Assembly: GCF_055900595.2 (NCBI RefSeq)
Contig: NZ_CM148325.1
DNA length: 64,000 nucleotides
Strand: one strand, 5' to 3'
The notes under the pieces were generated by a model that saw nothing but the letters and a program-made list of their open reading frames with translations, was not told the origin of the DNA and ran no database searches. The position numbers and the translations under genes were made by a program. Below, one piece after another: positions 3,386-51,828 of the stretch. Positions within the stretch are counted from its first letter, which is position 1; each line of letters starts with the position of its first letter.

Positions 3386-4714
3386 CTGAGAGATCCCCTC
3401 ATAATTTCCCCAAAACGTAACCATGTGTGAATAGATTTTGAGTAAGCAGGGTTGCAGCCACGAGTGAGTCTTCCCTTGTTATTGTGTAGCCAGAATGCCG
3501 CAAAACTTCCATGCCTAAGCGAACTGTTGAGAGTACGTTTCGATTTCTGACTGTGTTAGCCTGGAAGTGCTTGTCCCAACCTTGTTTCTGAGCATGAACG
3601 CCCGCAAGCCAACATGTTAGTTGAAGCATCAGGGCGATTAGCAGCATGATATCAAAACGCTCTGAGCTGCTCGTTCGGCTATGGCGTAGGCCTAGTCCGT
3701 AGGCAGGACTTTTCAAGTCTCGGAAGGTTTCTTCAATCTGCATTCGCTTCGAATAGATATTAACAAGTTGTTTGGGTGTTCGAATTTCAACAGGTAAGTT
3801 AGTTGCTAGAATCCATGGCTCCTTTGCCGACGCTGAGTAGATTTTAGGTGACGGGTGGTGACAATGAGTCCGTGTCGAGCGCTGATTTTTTCGGCCTTTA
3901 GAGCGAGATTTATACAATAGAATTTGGCATGAGATTGGATTGCTTTTAGTCAGCCTCTTATAGCCTAAAGTCTTTGAGTGACTAGATGACATATCATGTA
4001 AGTTGCTGATAGGTTTCCAGTTTTCCGCTCCTAGGTCTGCATATTGTACTTTTCCTCTTACTCGACTTAACCAGTACCAACCCAGCTTCTCAACGGATTT
4101 ATACCATGGCACTTTAAAGCCAGCATCACTGACAATGAGCGGTGTGGTGTTACTCGGTAGAATGCTCGCAAGGTCGGCTAGAAATTGGTCATGAGCTTTC
4201 TTTGAACATTGCTCTGAAAGCGGGAACGCTTTCTCATAAAGAGTAACAGAACGACCGTGTAGTGCGACTGAAGCTCGCAATACCATAAGCCGTTTTTGCT
4301 CACGGATATCAGACCAGTCAACAAGTACAATGGGCATCGTATTGCCCGAACAGATAAAGCTAGCATGCCAACGGTATACAGCGAGTCGCTCTTTGTGGAG
4401 GTGACGATTACCTAACAATCGGTCGATTCGTTTGATGTTATGTTTTGTTCTCGCTTTGGTTGGCAGGTTACGGCCAAGTTCGGTAAGAGTGAGAGTTTTA
4501 CAGTCAAGTAAGGCGTGGCAAGCCAACGTTAAGCTGTTGAGTCGTTTTAAGTGTAATTCGGGGCAGAATTGGTAAAGAGAGTCGTGTAAAATATCGAGTT
4601 CGCACATTTTGTTGTCTGATTATTGATTTTTGGCGAAACCATTTGATCATATGACAAGATGTGTATCCACCTTAACTTAATGATTTTTACCAAAATCATT
4701 AGGGGATTCATCAG
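3386..4714 (-). mobile_element. Insertion sequence IS10 (IS4 family), complete 1,329-bp element
   Basis: Termini CTGAGAGATCCCCTCATAATTTCCCC (3386->) and CTGATGAATCCCCTAATGATTTTGG (reverse complement at 4714<-) form the IS10 inverted repeats; internal 402-aa transposase; length 1329 bp; flanked by 9-bp direct repeats. Confidence 0.95.
3399..4607 (-). CDS. IS10 transposase
   Basis: 402-aa ORF MCELDILHDSLYQFCPELHLKRLNSLTLACHALLDCKTLTLTELGRNLPTKARTKHNIKRIDRLLGNRHLHKERLAVYRWH... matches the IS10/Tn10 transposase as I recall it. Confidence 0.95.
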   Translation of the reverse strand: MCELDILHDSLYQFCPELHLKRLNSLTLACHALLDCKTLTLTELGRNLPTKARTKHNIKRIDRLLGNRHLHKERLAVYRWHASFICSGNTMPIVLVDWSDIREQKRLMVLRASVALHGRSVTLYEKAFPLSEQCSKKAHDQFLADLASILPSNTTPLIVSDAGFKVPWYKSVEKLGWYWLSRVRGKVQYADLGAENWKPISNLHDMSSSHSKTLGYKRLTKSNPISCQILLYKSRSKGRKNQRSTRTHCHHPSPKIYSASAKEPWILATNLPVEIRTPKQLVNIYSKRMQIEETFRDLKSPAYGLGLRHSRTSSSERFDIMLLIALMLQLTCWLAGVHAQKQGWDKHFQANTVRNRNVLSTVRLGMEVLRHSGYTITREDSLVAATLLTQNLFTHGYVLGKL

Positions 4715-36060: not shown

Positions 36061-36113
36061 CGGCGGCAGAGCAGTCACGGAGTAAAACTGATACCGCTAA
36101 ACGTCACCAGAAA
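36061..36113 (-). ncRNA. dicF: DicF small regulatory RNA (ftsZ-targeting sRNA)
   Basis: Reverse complement TTTCTGGTGACGTTTAGCGGTATCAGTTTTACTCCGTGACTGCTCTGCCGCCG followed by T-run; near-identical to the 53-nt DicF sequence as I recall it; located just upstream of dicB. Confidence 0.75.
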
Positions 36114-40855: not shown

Positions 40856-41008
40856 TTTTAATTGAGGGTGGGAAGGACTATCACCCTCATAATTCTTCAC
40901 CATTCAATCAAGAGCAATTCAAGGTGATTTGCTCTGTACATAGTCGGTTAGTTAGCACTTCGTAATTTATTGAATAGAAGGCTTTTGGAACAGTATCTTC
41001 ACTCGTGC

Positions 41009-41257
41009 TTATCGCCCAGCAGATTTAGCAAGAATAGTCTCGAGCATTTCTGGTACGTTGCCTTTAGCATTGATAGTTGCTGTTCGGTAAGCTAGTTGAT
41101 TTTTTGAGAGATTGATTCCTGTAAGTGCTTCAATTTCGTTGCAGGCCTTACCCCATTCTACCCAGTTTTCAGACAAAAAAGATTCAAGATGATCCGCAAA
41201 TATAGCAATATCATTAGTAACTGTTGCAGCTGGAATATAGACTATGCGAAAAGCCAT
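41009..41257 (-). CDS. Hypothetical protein (convergent with KTSC gene)
   Basis: 82-aa ORF MAFRIVYIPAATVTNDIAIFADHLESFLSENWVEWGKACNEIEALTGINL...; no recognisable motif. Confidence 0.4.
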   Translation of the reverse strand: MAFRIVYIPAATVTNDIAIFADHLESFLSENWVEWGKACNEIEALTGINLSKNQLAYRTATINAKGNVPEMLETILAKSAGR

Positions 41258-41579
41258 TGGTTGACTACTTCAATGTATCCTGTATCAACAATGAAAATGT
41301 CCGTTCTTCGCTCACAGAATTAGTGCGACAGCTTCGCACCAAGAGCTGACATTGTAATATCCGACAGGCTATTGCCTGTCAGTTAACAGTTACGTGTTAT
41401 AAAAGGTCAGGCGGGATCCTGACTAGGTGTGTTTAAAGAAGTGCTGGTGGTGAGCGGGTGTTGTGTCCAATTTCCACAGAAAAAAATCTGAGAAACTATA
41501 CCCAATAGTTGTATTGAATCACTGACGAGACAGCCTCATATTTATCAGGACTGGTGTACTTCCAATTCAGGAGGTTGTC

Positions 41580-41669
41580 GTGCTGGTTCTCAAATGTGCG
41601 CTAGCTATTGCGGCTGTAATGGCAATTTATTGTCTTGCTGTTGTTCTTACGGATCGCCTTTCTGATTGA
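41580..41669 (+). CDS. Candidate small hydrophobic peptide (29 aa), possible small membrane toxin
   Basis: Perfect SD AGGAGG (41569-41574), 5-nt spacer, GTG start; translation (M)LVLKCALAIAAVMAIYCLAVVLTDRLSD = single predicted TM helix with charged tail. Confidence 0.35.
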   Translation: MLVLKCALAIAAVMAIYCLAVVLTDRLSD

Positions 41670-41823
41670 TTTTATATTGGCGAGGTGACGTGAGTTAAGT
41701 AGAATTGCTGCGGGTGCTTGAGGCTATCTGCCTCAGGCATGAACACCAACGGCAGATAGAGAAAAGCCCCAGTTAACATTACGCGTCCTGCAAGACGCTT
41801 AACATTAATCTGAGGCCAATTTC

Positions 41824-42036
41824 ATGCTAGACACATGTAGGTTAGCCTCTTACGTGCCGGAAGGCAAGGAGAAGCAGGCTATGAAGCAGCAAAAGGCGAT
41901 GTTAATCGCCCTGATCGTCATCTGTTTAACCGTCATAGTGACGGCACTGGTAACGAGGAAAGACCTCTGCGAGGTACGAATCCGAACCGGCCAGACGGAG
42001 GTCGCTGTCTTCACAGCTTACGAACCTGAGGAGTAA
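41824..42036 (+). CDS. mokD: Mok-like leader frame (N-terminally extended hok reading frame)
   Basis: ATG at 41824, MLDTCRLASYVPEGKEKQA-MKQQK...; same frame as hok, as in annotated mok/hok pairs. Confidence 0.5.
   Translation: MLDTCRLASYVPEGKEKQAMKQQKAMLIALIVICLTVIVTALVTRKDLCEVRIRTGQTEVAVFTAYEPEE
41881..42036 (+). CDS. hokD: Hok-family type I toxin (HokD/RelF-like)
   Basis: 51-aa ORF MKQQKAMLIALIVICLTVIVTALVTRKDLCEVRIRTGQTEVAVFTAYEPEE. Confidence 0.9.
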   Translation: MKQQKAMLIALIVICLTVIVTALVTRKDLCEVRIRTGQTEVAVFTAYEPEE

Positions 42037-42104
42037 GAGACTAAGCGGGGGAGAAATCCCTCGCCACCTCTGATGAGTCAGGCATCCTCAATGCACCCGC
42101 GCTT

Positions 42105-42126
42105 AACCCGCTTCGGCGGGTTTTTC
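42105..42126 (+). terminator. Rho-independent terminator after hok
   Basis: CCCGC-ttcg-GCGGG stem-loop followed by TTTTT. Confidence 0.7.
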
Positions 42127-42202: not shown

Positions 42203-42817
42203 ATGCAGAATTTATCTCAACAGTTGTTAGAAGCATATGACAAGGAGTGCCGCAAAGAGCTTTCGATCGCGTTAGCACAGGCTTATCTTCATTCGCATAT
42301 GAAGGCAAAAGAGTTTGGTTCTTTTTGGGCTCAAGCACAGTCATATTTGCGCTGGTTTTATGCCGATGCATTGCTTGAGAATGCGGCTAAGCGTGTGGGG
42401 CTGGATTTTGAAGTCGGTAGCAATGCTGCTAAAAATTGTAAACACATTGCGATTCACTCGAACAACTGGAAAATGACGGCACATCATTTATCGGGTAATG
42501 CGCCACTTCCTAAGCAGGCATTGTATAGAGCTGTTTACGCTAATCAAAATTATGAATTGAATTTTGGGGATGAAAATGCCGACTCCCTGGATGGGAGAGC
42601 GTCTGGTGGACATGTTTATATGTTACATGATGGCAGTAATCAGCACTTGTCCAAACTGAATTTAACTGTTCCTTCTTCGGATAATTACGGGATTCTTTAT
42701 ACTGAGTCTTTACCAATTATGACGATGGTAGAAGTTGAAGCAGAAAATGTGGATTCTGAGATTGAAGATAAAATCAAGATTCTTACCGAACAAATAATTA
42801 AATCACAGCAATCATGA
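42203..42817 (+). CDS. Uncharacterised protein, upstream partner of the HTH-peptidase gene (candidate toxin/effector)
   Basis: 204-aa ORF MQNLSQQLLEAYDKECRKELSIALAQAYLHSHMKAKEFGSFW...; RBS AAGGA; stop overlaps the next gene's start (ATGA); no motif recognised; AT-rich. Confidence 0.7.
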   Translation: MQNLSQQLLEAYDKECRKELSIALAQAYLHSHMKAKEFGSFWAQAQSYLRWFYADALLENAAKRVGLDFEVGSNAAKNCKHIAIHSNNWKMTAHHLSGNAPLPKQALYRAVYANQNYELNFGDENADSLDGRASGGHVYMLHDGSNQHLSKLNLTVPSSDNYGILYTESLPIMTMVEVEAENVDSEIEDKIKILTEQIIKSQQS

Positions 42818-43959
42818 GCATGAATATCGCACAAACACCATTTACTGATAAATCGTTTAATCCTCGTCGCCTTGAGGAGGCAAGAGAGGCAAAAGGGTTG
42901 ACGATGGCTGAACTTGCCAGAGTGCTCAATATTTCAAGACAAGCTATTTCGTCATTTGAGAAGGGGTTGAAGTCTCCCTCTGCTGATACACTTTCTGCAA
43001 TAGCCAAGGTGTTAGGATTTCCAGAACGATTTTTCTTAGCCTCCAGTGCTTCTCCATCTCTGGAGGGGGCGATTCATTTTAGAAGTCGTTCAACTGCGAC
43101 CAAAAAGGCTCGAGTTACAGGGAAAACACGTGGGCGTTGGGCGGCATTAATATTGGATGAATGTCTAAAATATGCTCAATTACCAGATGTGGTTCTGCCT
43201 GAATTCGATATTATTGATTTTGAGGTTCTGTCTCTATCTGATATTGAGGATATGTCCACCCAATTAAGGCGTTTTTGGGGGTTAGGTGATGGTCCAATAC
43301 TCAATTTAACTAGACTTGTTGAAAATAAAGGAATCGTGGTTTCTCATTTACCTTCTGGTGAGAAAGTTGATGCCTTTTCGTTCTGGCATAATGGGCGGCC
43401 TTTAATTATGTTAGATAGCTCGAAGACGGCTGTTCGCATGCGATTTAGTCTTGCTCATGAACTTGGCCATTTAATTATGCATAGGGCAGTGGAGGATGAC
43501 TACCTGAATGATAAAGAATTATTCGACCTGGTGGAGTTGCAGGCCGATTATTTTGCCTCCAGCTTTTTAATGCCAGCCACCACTTTCGGGCGTGAATTTT
43601 ATAGTCCAAATTTATCAGCGTTAGAACGATTAAAACTACGTTGGATTACATCTATCGGTAGTATTGCCATGAGGAGTCATAGCCTTAAGTTAATCAGCGA
43701 TAATCAGAAAAGCTATATATTTAAGCAATTAGCGCCATTCCATCGTAGGGAGCCGTTAGATGATGCAATCCCAAAAGAAGAGCCTGAGTTACTTAATAAG
43801 TTACTTTTACTTCTTGATAAGCATTCAATCATAAAGGTAACTGAGTTAACTGATATCTTTGCTCTTCCCTTAAATGAGTTATCTGCAATTACACGATTTA
43901 AAGAATCAGATATGATTCATTCTGACAATGTTATTTCATTTACCATAAAACAAAAATAA
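42814..43959 (+). CDS. XRE-family HTH fused to ImmA/IrrE-type zinc metallopeptidase
   Basis: 381-aa ORF; N-terminal HTH (...LTMAELARVLNISRQAISSFEKGLKSPSADTLSAIAKVLGF...) and HExxH motif in ...RFSLAHELGHLIMH...; translationally coupled to upstream gene. Confidence 0.8.
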   Translation: MSMNIAQTPFTDKSFNPRRLEEAREAKGLTMAELARVLNISRQAISSFEKGLKSPSADTLSAIAKVLGFPERFFLASSASPSLEGAIHFRSRSTATKKARVTGKTRGRWAALILDECLKYAQLPDVVLPEFDIIDFEVLSLSDIEDMSTQLRRFWGLGDGPILNLTRLVENKGIVVSHLPSGEKVDAFSFWHNGRPLIMLDSSKTAVRMRFSLAHELGHLIMHRAVEDDYLNDKELFDLVELQADYFASSFLMPATTFGREFYSPNLSALERLKLRWITSIGSIAMRSHSLKLISDNQKSYIFKQLAPFHRREPLDDAIPKEEPELLNKLLLLLDKHSIIKVTELTDIFALPLNELSAITRFKESDMIHSDNVISFTIKQK

Positions 43960-51053: not shown

Positions 51054-51416
51054 ATTAATATTAAATCGGATTATTTTTAGCGCTGAATGTGAAATTTAAA
51101 TAAAAAGGACTCTTCCATGAGTCAAAATCCTTGAAATCTTAAGGGTAAGATAAAAGGTCATTAGACAGAATGACACGTTTTATTAATAAATAAAGCTATT
51201 GTTTCATTCGTGTGTTTTTCTTTACAAAAGTAATCCTTGCTATGGTTGGTTAATCATGCGTTAATGGTGTTCTGGTTTGTTACAAAATTATCTGAAGCAG
51301 TCATTGTTATAATTTTATTATTTGTACCTCTTGAGATTTCCTTGTTGGTTTTTCTCTCTGATATTTTTTTTCGGACCATTCTGCCCAAGGGCTAACTTCT
51401 TCAAAAGGTAATAATG

Positions 51417-51629
51417 ATGTCTAACAAAATGACTGGTTTAGTGAAATGGTTTAACCCTGAAAAAGGTTTTGGTTTCATCACGCCGAAAGATGGTAGCAAA
51501 GATGTGTTTGTCCATTTCTCAGCTATTCAGAGCAACGATTTCAAAACGTTAACTGAGAATCAGGAAGTCGAATTTGGTATTGAGAACGGACCTAAAGGCC
51601 CCGCGGCTGTTCATGTTGTGGCACTTTGA
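51417..51629 (+). CDS. cspI: Cold-shock protein (CspA family; CspI-like)
   Basis: 70-aa [73 protein letters not shown]; preceded by ~360-bp untranslated AT-rich leader. Confidence 0.85.
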
Positions 51630-51828
51630 GGTAGATAATATTACAAACCATATTCACTTTAGATGCCCGTGTTGCCATGGTTCTCAGTATAGAACATCAT
51701 CTTTTGATGTTTCTGACAGGAATCCTTTCGGGGCAAAATGTATCTTTTGTAAATCAATGATGATTACATTTGATAATATTTCACAATACTTAAATGTTAG
51801 CCGTCTATCGTTAGATTTAAGAAAGTGA
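51613..51828 (+). CDS. Candidate small zinc-ribbon-like protein (CPCC...CxxC)
   Basis: [51 protein letters not shown]...; overlaps csp 3' end; weak RBS; followed by terminator. Confidence 0.25.

Follow-up and report, generated by a model that had tools for sequence, protein, structure and literature searches.

A probable 29-codon membrane-protein gene beside hok/sok at the edge of a prophage cargo hotspot in Escherichia and Shigella

Introduction

Enterobacteria carry small single-pass inner-membrane proteins, such as KdpF (29 aa), MgtR (30 aa), MgtS, AcrZ, and MgrB, which are often missed by annotation. The present work addresses a possible addition to this group: a 29-codon frame lying shortly upstream of a hokD-type toxin gene in a stretch of 64,000 nt from contig NZ_CM148325.1 (assembly GCF_055900595.2), which is a lambda-like prophage. 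This whole stretch is called the window, and all coordinates are positions within it. The predicted product resembles the proteins above in having fewer than 50 residues, one hydrophobic helix, a short polar end, conserved residues within the helix, and a strong ribosome-binding site. In contrast, it scores no better than shuffled sequences against KdpF and MgtR, and its gene belongs to a mobile prophage cassette, not to a host operon, and was found in Escherichia and Shigella only.

The length, the hydrophobic helix, the location on a mobile element, and the hok/sok neighbor also recall the type I toxins (Hok/Gef of PF01848, TisB, Ldr, Ibs, ShoB, DinQ, and ZorO), from which the small gene differs in that no conserved antisense or divergent small RNA (sRNA), no conserved structure hiding the ribosome-binding site, and no sequence similarity could be detected. 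A further point of comparison is provided by moron genes, including hokW-sokW of phage Sp5 (PMC8621323). Like these, the small gene lies in the region between replication and Q, is dispensable and mosaic, and is flanked by variable defense or cargo genes. Unlike typical moron genes, it is far smaller and, together with hok, forms the conserved edge of a hotspot instead of its variable cargo.

An earlier note, made from the letters of the window alone, had pointed to this frame as a potential type I toxin or small membrane regulator. The patterns of substitution described below indicate that it is very probably a real protein-coding gene. It is found in about one third of complete E. coli genomes and on every virulence plasmid of Shigella and enteroinvasive E. 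coli (EIEC) that was found. Being short, with a strongly predicted membrane helix, under purifying selection, and present on isolated temperate phages, it constitutes a tractable small-protein candidate.

Materials and Methods

Distribution was assessed with a 221-nt query around the frame, a match being counted if it covered at least 80 % of the query. For the coding tests, homologues were found by DNA alone, either by blastn or, in IMG/VR, by the pattern CATATTTATCAG-N12-24-CAGGAG, which combines the block upstream of the gene with its ribosome-binding site; the peptide was not used, in order to avoid peptide-based bias. Together, the two routes yielded 93 usable loci with 27 distinct open reading frame (ORF) sequences, or 28 when the copy on the Shigella virulence plasmid pINV is included. 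Homologous loci are referred to by number (L001 onward). Substitutions were counted by parsimony on a neighbor-joining tree, and the null distribution was obtained by re-placing the events at random sites while keeping their transition/transversion class. The peptide was compared with R1 Hok, TisB, LdrD, IbsC, ShoB, DinQ, ZorO, Fst, KdpF, and MgtR, and shuffled versions of the peptide served as reference.

Results

A 29-Codon Frame with a Consensus Ribosome-Binding Site

The frame opens with GTG, closes with TGA at 41667-41669, and encodes (M)LVLKCALAIAAVMAIYCLAVVLTDRLSD. Its elements, which read in the sequence as the earlier note had claimed, are the following:

41569-41574, plus strand: Shine-Dalgarno sequence AGGAGG, 5 nt (TTGTC) ahead of the GTG, by direct reading
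41580-41669, plus strand: small gene of 29 codons, product MLVLKCALAIAAVMAIYCLAVVLTDRLSD with a predicted single transmembrane helix, from the ORF listing

Counting both strands, the 64 kb contain the hexamer AGGAGG only 17 times. In six cases, that of the small frame among them, a start codon lies 4-9 nt further on and opens at least 29 codons; apart from the small frame, four of these ORFs span 141-699 codons. The arrangement is highly conserved. Among the 93 DNA-found loci, the Shine-Dalgarno sequence is AGGAGG in 89 and AGGAGA in 4, with a 5-nt spacer and a GTG start throughout. The pINV copy starts with ATG instead of GTG, and three divergent relatives (L213, L216, and L214) carry GGAGA, GGAGG, or GGAGGG followed by 4-5 nt to the start.

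Coding Constraint

Conservation of the peptide in related prophages, proposed earlier as a check, was borne out: the frame is open in 93/93 DNA-found loci, with no indel or stop inside it, and the flanks do have indels. Four of the homologues found by blastn keep the frame with many synonymous differences in four different settings, namely a DUF4145 gene upstream, a restriction endonuclease upstream, Shigella-type pINV, and a locus without hok. The parsimony counts were as follows:

Small ORF, codons 2-29: 38 synonymous, 41 non-synonymous; null 24.5±4.1 synonymous; P=0.00085
Other five frames: 15-28 synonymous, 46-63 non-synonymous
hok in the same loci, 39 events: 15 synonymous, 24 non-synonymous; null 11.6±2.8 synonymous; P=0.16
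Non-coding leader, three pseudo-frames: 21-34 synonymous, 86-104 non-synonymous; null 26.4-30.7 synonymous; P=0.99, 0.11, 0.06

The synonymous-site pattern on which the earlier note had made its proposal depend is therefore present, and the excess is specific to the small ORF's own frame. Events at codon positions 1, 2, and 3 numbered 27, 16, and 36, and none created a stop, whereas stop-creating events occurred in three of the other five frames and numbered 3-8 in each leader pseudo-frame. The ratio of non-synonymous to synonymous divergence (dN/dS) between close homologues ranged from 0.09 to 0.54. Against the divergent relatives, the proportion of synonymous differences (pS) was 0.55-0.8, near saturation, that of non-synonymous differences (pN) was 0.14-0.29, and dN/dS was about 0.1-0.3 in most comparisons. 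The retention of amino-acid motifs at such synonymous divergence would be hard to explain unless the frame is coding. In a sample that was partly peptide-found, the ORF was also the best-conserved segment, with 56 % invariant columns as against 3-23 % in the leader, the candidate promoter, the 5' untranslated region, the hok promoter, and the hok leader.

An alternative 23-codon ORF in the +2 frame (41594-41665) was considered and dismissed, having no coding signal (16 synonymous and 63 non-synonymous events), and the ORF listing of the window contains no minus-strand ORF of at least 20 codons overlapping the small gene. In one IMGVR_UViG contig (L188), an 11-nt deletion in the region corresponding to window 41662-41680 has taken out the stop codon together with the spacer that precedes the hok -35; the protein is lengthened to 35 aa (…MERFSDWRGRGS) and reads into the hok promoter.

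A Family of Predicted One-Helix Membrane Proteins

When 1.84 billion representative proteins were searched with a profile, 17 matched, every one belonging to the small-protein family. Divergent members include MLIIKGVLAIVIVVAIYCLVVTLWERLSD, MLAALKGFVAILAVVAIYCLVVVLMDRLSD, …MEGALAVVAVVGVYCLVVFLMDRLGN, and a form ending …IYCLVIVLMDRIFE, and they retain the core AV..(I/V)YCLV..LM(D/E)RL. Across the aligned family, A9, V13, Y17, C18, L19, L23, and R26 are kept, with D or E at position 25.

The single transmembrane helix with a short charged tail described in the earlier note holds as a prediction. The 19-residue Kyte-Doolittle maximum is 2.56 for the window allele and 2.4-3.1 for variants, and AlphaFold2, given the family alignment, models a single helix over residues 2-29 with a mean pLDDT of 92. 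The product is thus predicted to be a one-helix membrane protein and, by the same models, would have the small, hydrophobic, membrane-embedded build of type I toxins. In the window allele, an N-in/C-out topology is suggested by K5 on one side of the helix and the acidic tail on the opposite side.

The protein matched none of the NCBIfam models and had no significant match in PHROGs (best E=2.4). Local alignment with the HokD of the window gave z=0.62 against shuffles, and alignment with R1 Hok gave z=0.17. Similarity to TisB, LdrD, IbsC, ShoB, DinQ, ZorO, Fst, KdpF, and MgtR was likewise not above that of a shuffled peptide. Since the peptide ends five residues past the helix, it has no Hok-type C-terminal domain (periplasmic and Cys-containing) and does not belong to Hok/Gef (PF01848). 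A truncated duplicate of Hok was ruled out, the alignment being no better than shuffles and nucleotide similarity being absent by eye. A lipobox was also sought by eye, without a convincing candidate; VLKC is not a lipobox.

Distribution and Existing Annotation

Of 5426 complete E. coli genomes, 1812 contain a match, with identities of 77-100 %. In IMG/VR viral contigs, 156 stretches were confirmed by tblastn, and four isolated temperate phages carry the gene: Tritos, Evi, mEp460_ev081, and HannyBb. The 143 plasmid records are nearly all pINV of Shigella or EIEC. Among 100,044 species-representative genomes, only three loci were recovered, one in E. albertii and two in metagenome bins labeled Haemophilus and Ca. 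Scatousia excrementigallinarum, which are possibly E. coli contamination. In the sequence collections searched, the family is restricted to Escherichia and Shigella, in lambda-like phages and prophages.

The description of the frame as unannotated stands in part. RefSeq usually leaves the gene uncalled, including in the genomes closest to the window, although it is called in strain fEC.1 as WP_000960667.1, a "hypothetical protein" that corresponds to the same 90-nt gene at the homologous position (allele MLVLKCALAIVAVMAIYCLAIILMDRLSD). Entries in GenBank and UniRef bear the names "membrane protein", "hypothetical protein", and "Uncharacterised protein [Shigella flexneri]". The UniRef name A0A0M1UIT1_ECOLX attaches to the exact sequence of the pINV allele, and APK79853.1 (GenBank "membrane protein") is the window allele with five extra N-terminal residues; some database entries start further upstream, giving 34-97 aa. 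Literature searches with the peptide strings and with WP_000960667 yielded no paper, and a preprint surveying hok loci, the hokW paper, and papers on the icsP promoter contained nothing relevant on the small gene. The protein is thus already in databases under non-committal names and would be a new, uncharacterized member of the broad class of small membrane proteins of bacteria and phages.

The Neighboring hok/sok Locus

Downstream of the small gene, the following features were recognized:

41677-41705, plus strand: hok promoter-like site TTGGCG-17-TAGAAT, from a consensus scan, matching 9/12 positions
41712-41886, plus strand: hok mRNA leader and sok antisense region, Rfam RF01794, 115.8 bits, E=1.2e-25
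41881-42036, plus strand: hokD-type toxin gene, from the RefSeq annotation of the 99.9 % identical locus L001 and the ORF listing

The measured gap between the small frame and the hok coding sequence is 211 nt, in agreement with the figure of about 210 bp given earlier. The HokD protein at the matching position of L001 is WP_000813254.1, and an in-frame ATG at 41824, upstream of hok, opens a 70-codon frame at the mok position; judged from its sequence, the neighboring hok/sok locus is complete. The hok promoter-like site starts 8 nt past the stop codon of the small gene. A mosaic boundary falls at the hok promoter, and the junction looks like mosaic recombination there.

The contrast that the earlier note drew with the Qin prophage of K-12 is correct, the order in K-12 being relB-relE-hokD. 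In NC_000913.3, positions 1645031-1645289 match window 41867-42125 at 97.3 %, from 14 nt before the hok ATG. As the similarity begins only at 41867, K-12, for which more ribosome-profiling data exist than for any other strain, is left without the hok promoter, the leader and sok, the mok-position start, and the small frame. The hokD of K-12 is a truncated copy of the window-type locus.

Linkage between the two genes is strong and incomplete. In 93 of 99 distinct contexts, hok is found within 420 nt downstream, the small gene lying 150-250 nt upstream of it; the six remaining contexts, for example L005, have the small gene without hok. The divergent relatives L213, L214, and L216 occupy the corresponding phage region, and their small gene is likewise followed, 150-250 nt on, by a HOK_GEF gene. 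Their Hok proteins are identical or nearly so to HokD despite large differences in the small protein; the two do not diverge together. Conversely, hok without the small gene is common, as in K-12, an O157 locus, and a decayed copy. Plasmid matches to the small gene are almost all pINV, and none turned up next to hok loci of the R1/F type. At the O157 locus (L211, 1480-1530; E. coli O157:H7 Z1816), a cargo insertion has cut the gene, leaving "ATG GAT CAC CTT TCT GAT TGA" (MDHLSD*) after queH. In L212 (1440-1520), the small gene has decayed by a frameshift, and RefSeq flags a partial pseudogene.

Leader, Candidate Promoter, and Cargo Junction

The left side of the conserved module comprises the following elements:

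41405-41424, both strands: terminator-like hairpin at the junction of cargo and module, from a consensus scan
41425-41579, plus strand: conserved non-coding leader traveling with the small gene, the left part of the conserved module
41514-41519, plus strand: candidate -35 TTGAAT, 17 nt ahead of CATATT, by direct reading
41537-41548, plus strand: invariant block CATATTTATCAG, in which CATATT (41537-41542) is a candidate -10

Similarity to the window stops on the left at 41410-41439 in 56 of 65 distinct upstream sequences, whatever cargo lies further left. Over the 1.1 kb upstream of the gene, the 99 distinct contexts contain 35 unrelated cargo clusters (window ~41000-41425 and its equivalents in L002-L210), among which are a restriction endonuclease, a DUF4145 protein, QueH, and HigB/HTH pairs. 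The variety of cargo and the fixed left edge together indicate that the small gene and hok form the conserved right edge of a hypervariable hotspot.

Block CATATTTATCAG is unchanged in the blastn-found loci L002-L005 and L008, in which neighboring bases vary, and is absent from L213 and L214. In L213, the small gene lies 50 nt past the preceding gene on the same strand, with the upstream block absent; this arrangement fits co-transcription with the phage early rightward operon. No terminator was recognized between the stop codon at 41669 and the start of the hok mRNA at ~41712, so transcripts passing through the gene should enter hok. A search by eye for motifs of other sigma factors was unconvincing.

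Several inverted repeats accompany this region. Just upstream of the candidate -35, window 41494-41510 contains the perfect repeat AACTAT-ACCCA-ATAGTT, which is kept in most close homologues and is degenerate in the pINV copy and in L003; in some alleles, a palindrome, CTCATCA-A-TGATGAG, replaces the candidate -35. These repeats could be operator-like sites. The hairpin at 41405-41424 is specific to the window-type allele, and most homologues instead have GTCCGCTT-loop-AAGCGGAC. At the cargo junction of L029 (2793-2830) and of most non-window homologues, to the left of window 41425, this conserved hairpin reads GTCCGCTT-CTCGCTCA-AAGCGGAC, and its right arm can alternatively pair with a downstream GTT(A/G)GCTT. 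A second, perfect hairpin, AAGCCAAC…GTTGGCTT, occurs in L060 and L138. RNAalifold detected no significant covariation in the junction hairpin region, and the hairpin is possibly a recombination or terminator element.

Search for an Antitoxin RNA

On the strand opposite the small gene, the promoter scan returned one candidate:

41669-41698, minus strand: antisense promoter-like site TTAACT-18-TAAAAT, probably a chance match

This site, read from 41698 to 41669, is the only one of its kind in the window. Its -10 keeps the essential A at position 2 in 43 of 93 loci, the others having TGAAAT, TGTAAT, or TGCAAT. The overlapping antisense RNA suggested for checking was accordingly rejected, the promoter from which it would start not being conserved. 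RNAalifold gave covariation terms of -0.83 for the putative mRNA and -0.13 for the leader, which amounts to essentially no covariation, and the single-sequence fold of the mRNA was unremarkable (z = -1.67). An mRNA structure hiding the ribosome-binding site was likewise discarded, as the weak stem predicted for it shows no covariation, and a permissive Rfam scan gave no family upstream of the hok leader. A -10-like TATAGT on the minus strand (41500 to 41495) recurs in 83 % of distinct sequences. A divergent leader sRNA combining this element with the terminator-like hairpin, read from 41423 to 41406, was considered and rejected, because the hairpin is specific to the window allele and the leader shows neither covariation nor an Rfam match. 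The 8-mer GTGCTGGT, shared by positions 41441 and 41580, is expected by chance for a repeat of this length within 300 nt. As far as the sequences reveal, the small gene has no antisense or adjacent RNA antitoxin with a conserved promoter; a trans-encoded or unconventional RNA would escape such a search.

The Copy on the Shigella Virulence Plasmid

The small gene of pINV is intact and has an ATG start in all 143 plasmid records found, with 380 nt separating it from the Shigella protease gene icsP downstream. Only window positions 41480-41764 have a counterpart there, and hok itself is therefore gone past about the first 50 nt of its transcript. In E. coli VL40 (L004, 1481-1760), the similar segment, 190-470 nt upstream of icsP, is a relic of the prophage cassette that keeps the small gene, the hok promoter, and ~50 nt of the hok leader, with hok, mok, and sok gone; the relic is shared by the 143 Shigella/EIEC plasmid records and by pWR100 (CP037924, about 90860-91090, minus strand). 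The transcription start map of Shigella flexneri M90T (PMC7132871, Table S3) places starts on the minus strand of pWR100 at 90709 and 90726 (icsP) and at 91318 ("novel transcript"). The ORF starts at 90997 on this plasmid, so that the start at 91318 lies 321 nt upstream and could read through the small gene.

Discussion

The established coding constraint, predicted helix, distribution, and hok linkage lead us to favor the following reading, with a probability of about 0.55: a prophage accessory cassette encodes a genuine small protein of the inner membrane, which acts by helix-helix contacts and independently of hok. The transcription route, topology, binding partner, and phenotype in this scheme are proposals. 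The gene would receive its transcripts by read-through from the early rightward operon of the phage, possibly also from a weak promoter of its own, and its consensus ribosome-binding site would drive efficient translation. The product would insert into the inner membrane as one helix, in the window allele with K5 in the cytoplasm and the acidic tail (M/T)-(D/E)-R-L-S-D in the periplasm. Residues A9, V13, Y17, C18, L19, L23, and R26 may then contact another membrane protein or further copies of the peptide, and envelope behavior would be modified during lysogeny or lytic growth. Such a protein would be independent of hok and would not be a classical type I toxin with an antisense RNA.

Several observations weigh against this proposal. 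The coding signal is clear yet moderate, as 41 non-synonymous events were counted, mostly exchanging one hydrophobic residue for another. Several relatives came from a protein search, so that the sample favors intact frames, and the alleles recombine, so that parsimony events are not strictly independent. TTGAAT-17-CATATT is weak as a promoter, matching 8/12 consensus positions, below the threshold of the scanner. Its -35 is found in 69 of 93 loci and is replaced by TCTCAT in 13 and ATGCGA in 5, and the M90T map contains no start near the position predicted on pWR100, ~91027. The topology is uncertain because L214 probably has an acidic N-terminal extension, MSDDISLAME. The constancy of hok beside the gene, in 93/99 contexts and all three divergent relatives, would also fit a functional tie, and the mechanistic part of the proposal rests on analogy with other small membrane proteins.

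Two alternatives accept the protein and assign it a different role. It could be a new type I toxin that damages or depolarizes the inner membrane and is held in check by a nearby antisense RNA or divergent-leader sRNA, the cassette then encoding two membrane toxins. The size, the single hydrophobic helix, and the charged tail match the general type I build, the gene adjoins a bona fide type I system (hok/sok), the window has the antisense promoter-like site, the minus-strand TATAGT is widely kept, and ~155 nt of conserved leader accompany the gene, which exceeds the need of a promoter. Yet the antisense -10 loses its essential A in most loci, covariation, a notable fold, and an Rfam match are all lacking, and no similarity to known toxins was detected. 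The ribosome-binding site is of consensus strength and is paired only in part and weakly in the fold, and L213 leaves no room for a long regulated leader. Since no conserved antisense promoter, RNA structure, or toxin similarity was found, the toxin suggestion of the earlier note is left unsupported, and we regard it as unlikely. A membrane partner of Hok, either an immunity-like antagonist or a tuner of Hok-assisted lysis and release, would turn hok/sok into a three-component system. This idea draws on the prevailing position upstream of hok, on the persistence of that position in L213, L214, and L216 despite near-saturated synonymous sites, and on the invariant transmembrane residues, which would suit a specific helix-helix contact; hokW-sokW of phage Sp5 is moreover reported to facilitate release of that phage (PMC8621323). 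It is nevertheless rather improbable, as L005-type loci and every pINV record found have an intact small gene and no hok, the hokD-type loci of K-12 and O157 work or persist in the absence of the small gene, Hok stays nearly identical where the small proteins differ greatly, and R1/F-type plasmid hok loci were not found to have the gene beside them.

The remaining alternatives deny a function to the peptide itself. The DNA might be conserved as a recombination anchor at the hotspot edge or as an upstream control region of hok, the frame being incidental. The block does lie exactly at the conserved edge of a region with 35 upstream cargo clusters and ends 8 nt before the hok -35; RefSeq mostly leaves the gene uncalled, and no pWR100 start is mapped at the predicted promoter. 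This explanation is very improbable in view of a synonymous excess confined to one frame, of indels in the flanks and none inside, and of amino-acid motifs persisting at near-saturated synonymous sites; in addition, the ribosome-binding site, its spacing, and the start codon are kept where the upstream DNA is unrelated, and on pINV the start is ATG. It is more doubtful still that the frame is a regulatory upstream ORF, in which the act of translation would control transcription or folding of the hok mRNA. The missing terminator between 41669 and ~41712 would permit such coupling, whereas the amino-acid sequence itself is constrained, the gene occurs without hok and hok without the gene, and the stop codon precedes the 5' end of the hok mRNA by 44 nt.

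Under the favored reading of an independent membrane protein, a gene usually missing from annotation is noteworthy for its prevalence, its constant place next to hok, and its presence on Shigella pINV. The fixed place by hok/sok also raises the question of whether prophage hok loci include an unrecognized protein component. If the small protein were a partner of Hok, prophage hokD-type loci would be three-component systems of small protein, Hok, and Sok RNA, and the constant place of the gene upstream of hok in strongly drifted relatives would be explained. Furthermore, the cassette is a marker for the conserved border of a cargo and defense hotspot, useful in the mining of new prophage cargo.

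Prophage Setting and Additional Features

In L001, the gene order is dicB, ydfA, a cI-like repressor gene, cro, YdaT, replication genes, DUF977, and two small hypothetical genes, followed by the small frame, hokD, a 204-aa gene, a 381-aa gene, DUF968, and the Q antiterminator; the small frame thus sits between the replication genes and Q. The 204-aa gene immediately after hok (42203-42817, plus strand), a "hypothetical protein" in RefSeq, has a match to the PADLOC defense-system model RmrT (E=7.5e-10). The 381-aa gene (42814-43959, plus strand), with an HTH and a metallopeptidase-like domain, matches the RmrA defense model of PADLOC (E=5.5e-102) and is named "helix-turn-helix domain-containing protein" in RefSeq. 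Elsewhere in the window, Rfam recognized RNA-OUT, which is an antisense RNA of the IS10 type (4600-4669, plus strand), the small RNA DicF (36061-36112, minus strand), and a cspA-type thermoregulator leader (51259-51675, plus strand). The last two correspond to elements of Qin-like prophages (compare dicF, cspB, and cspF of K-12 Qin).

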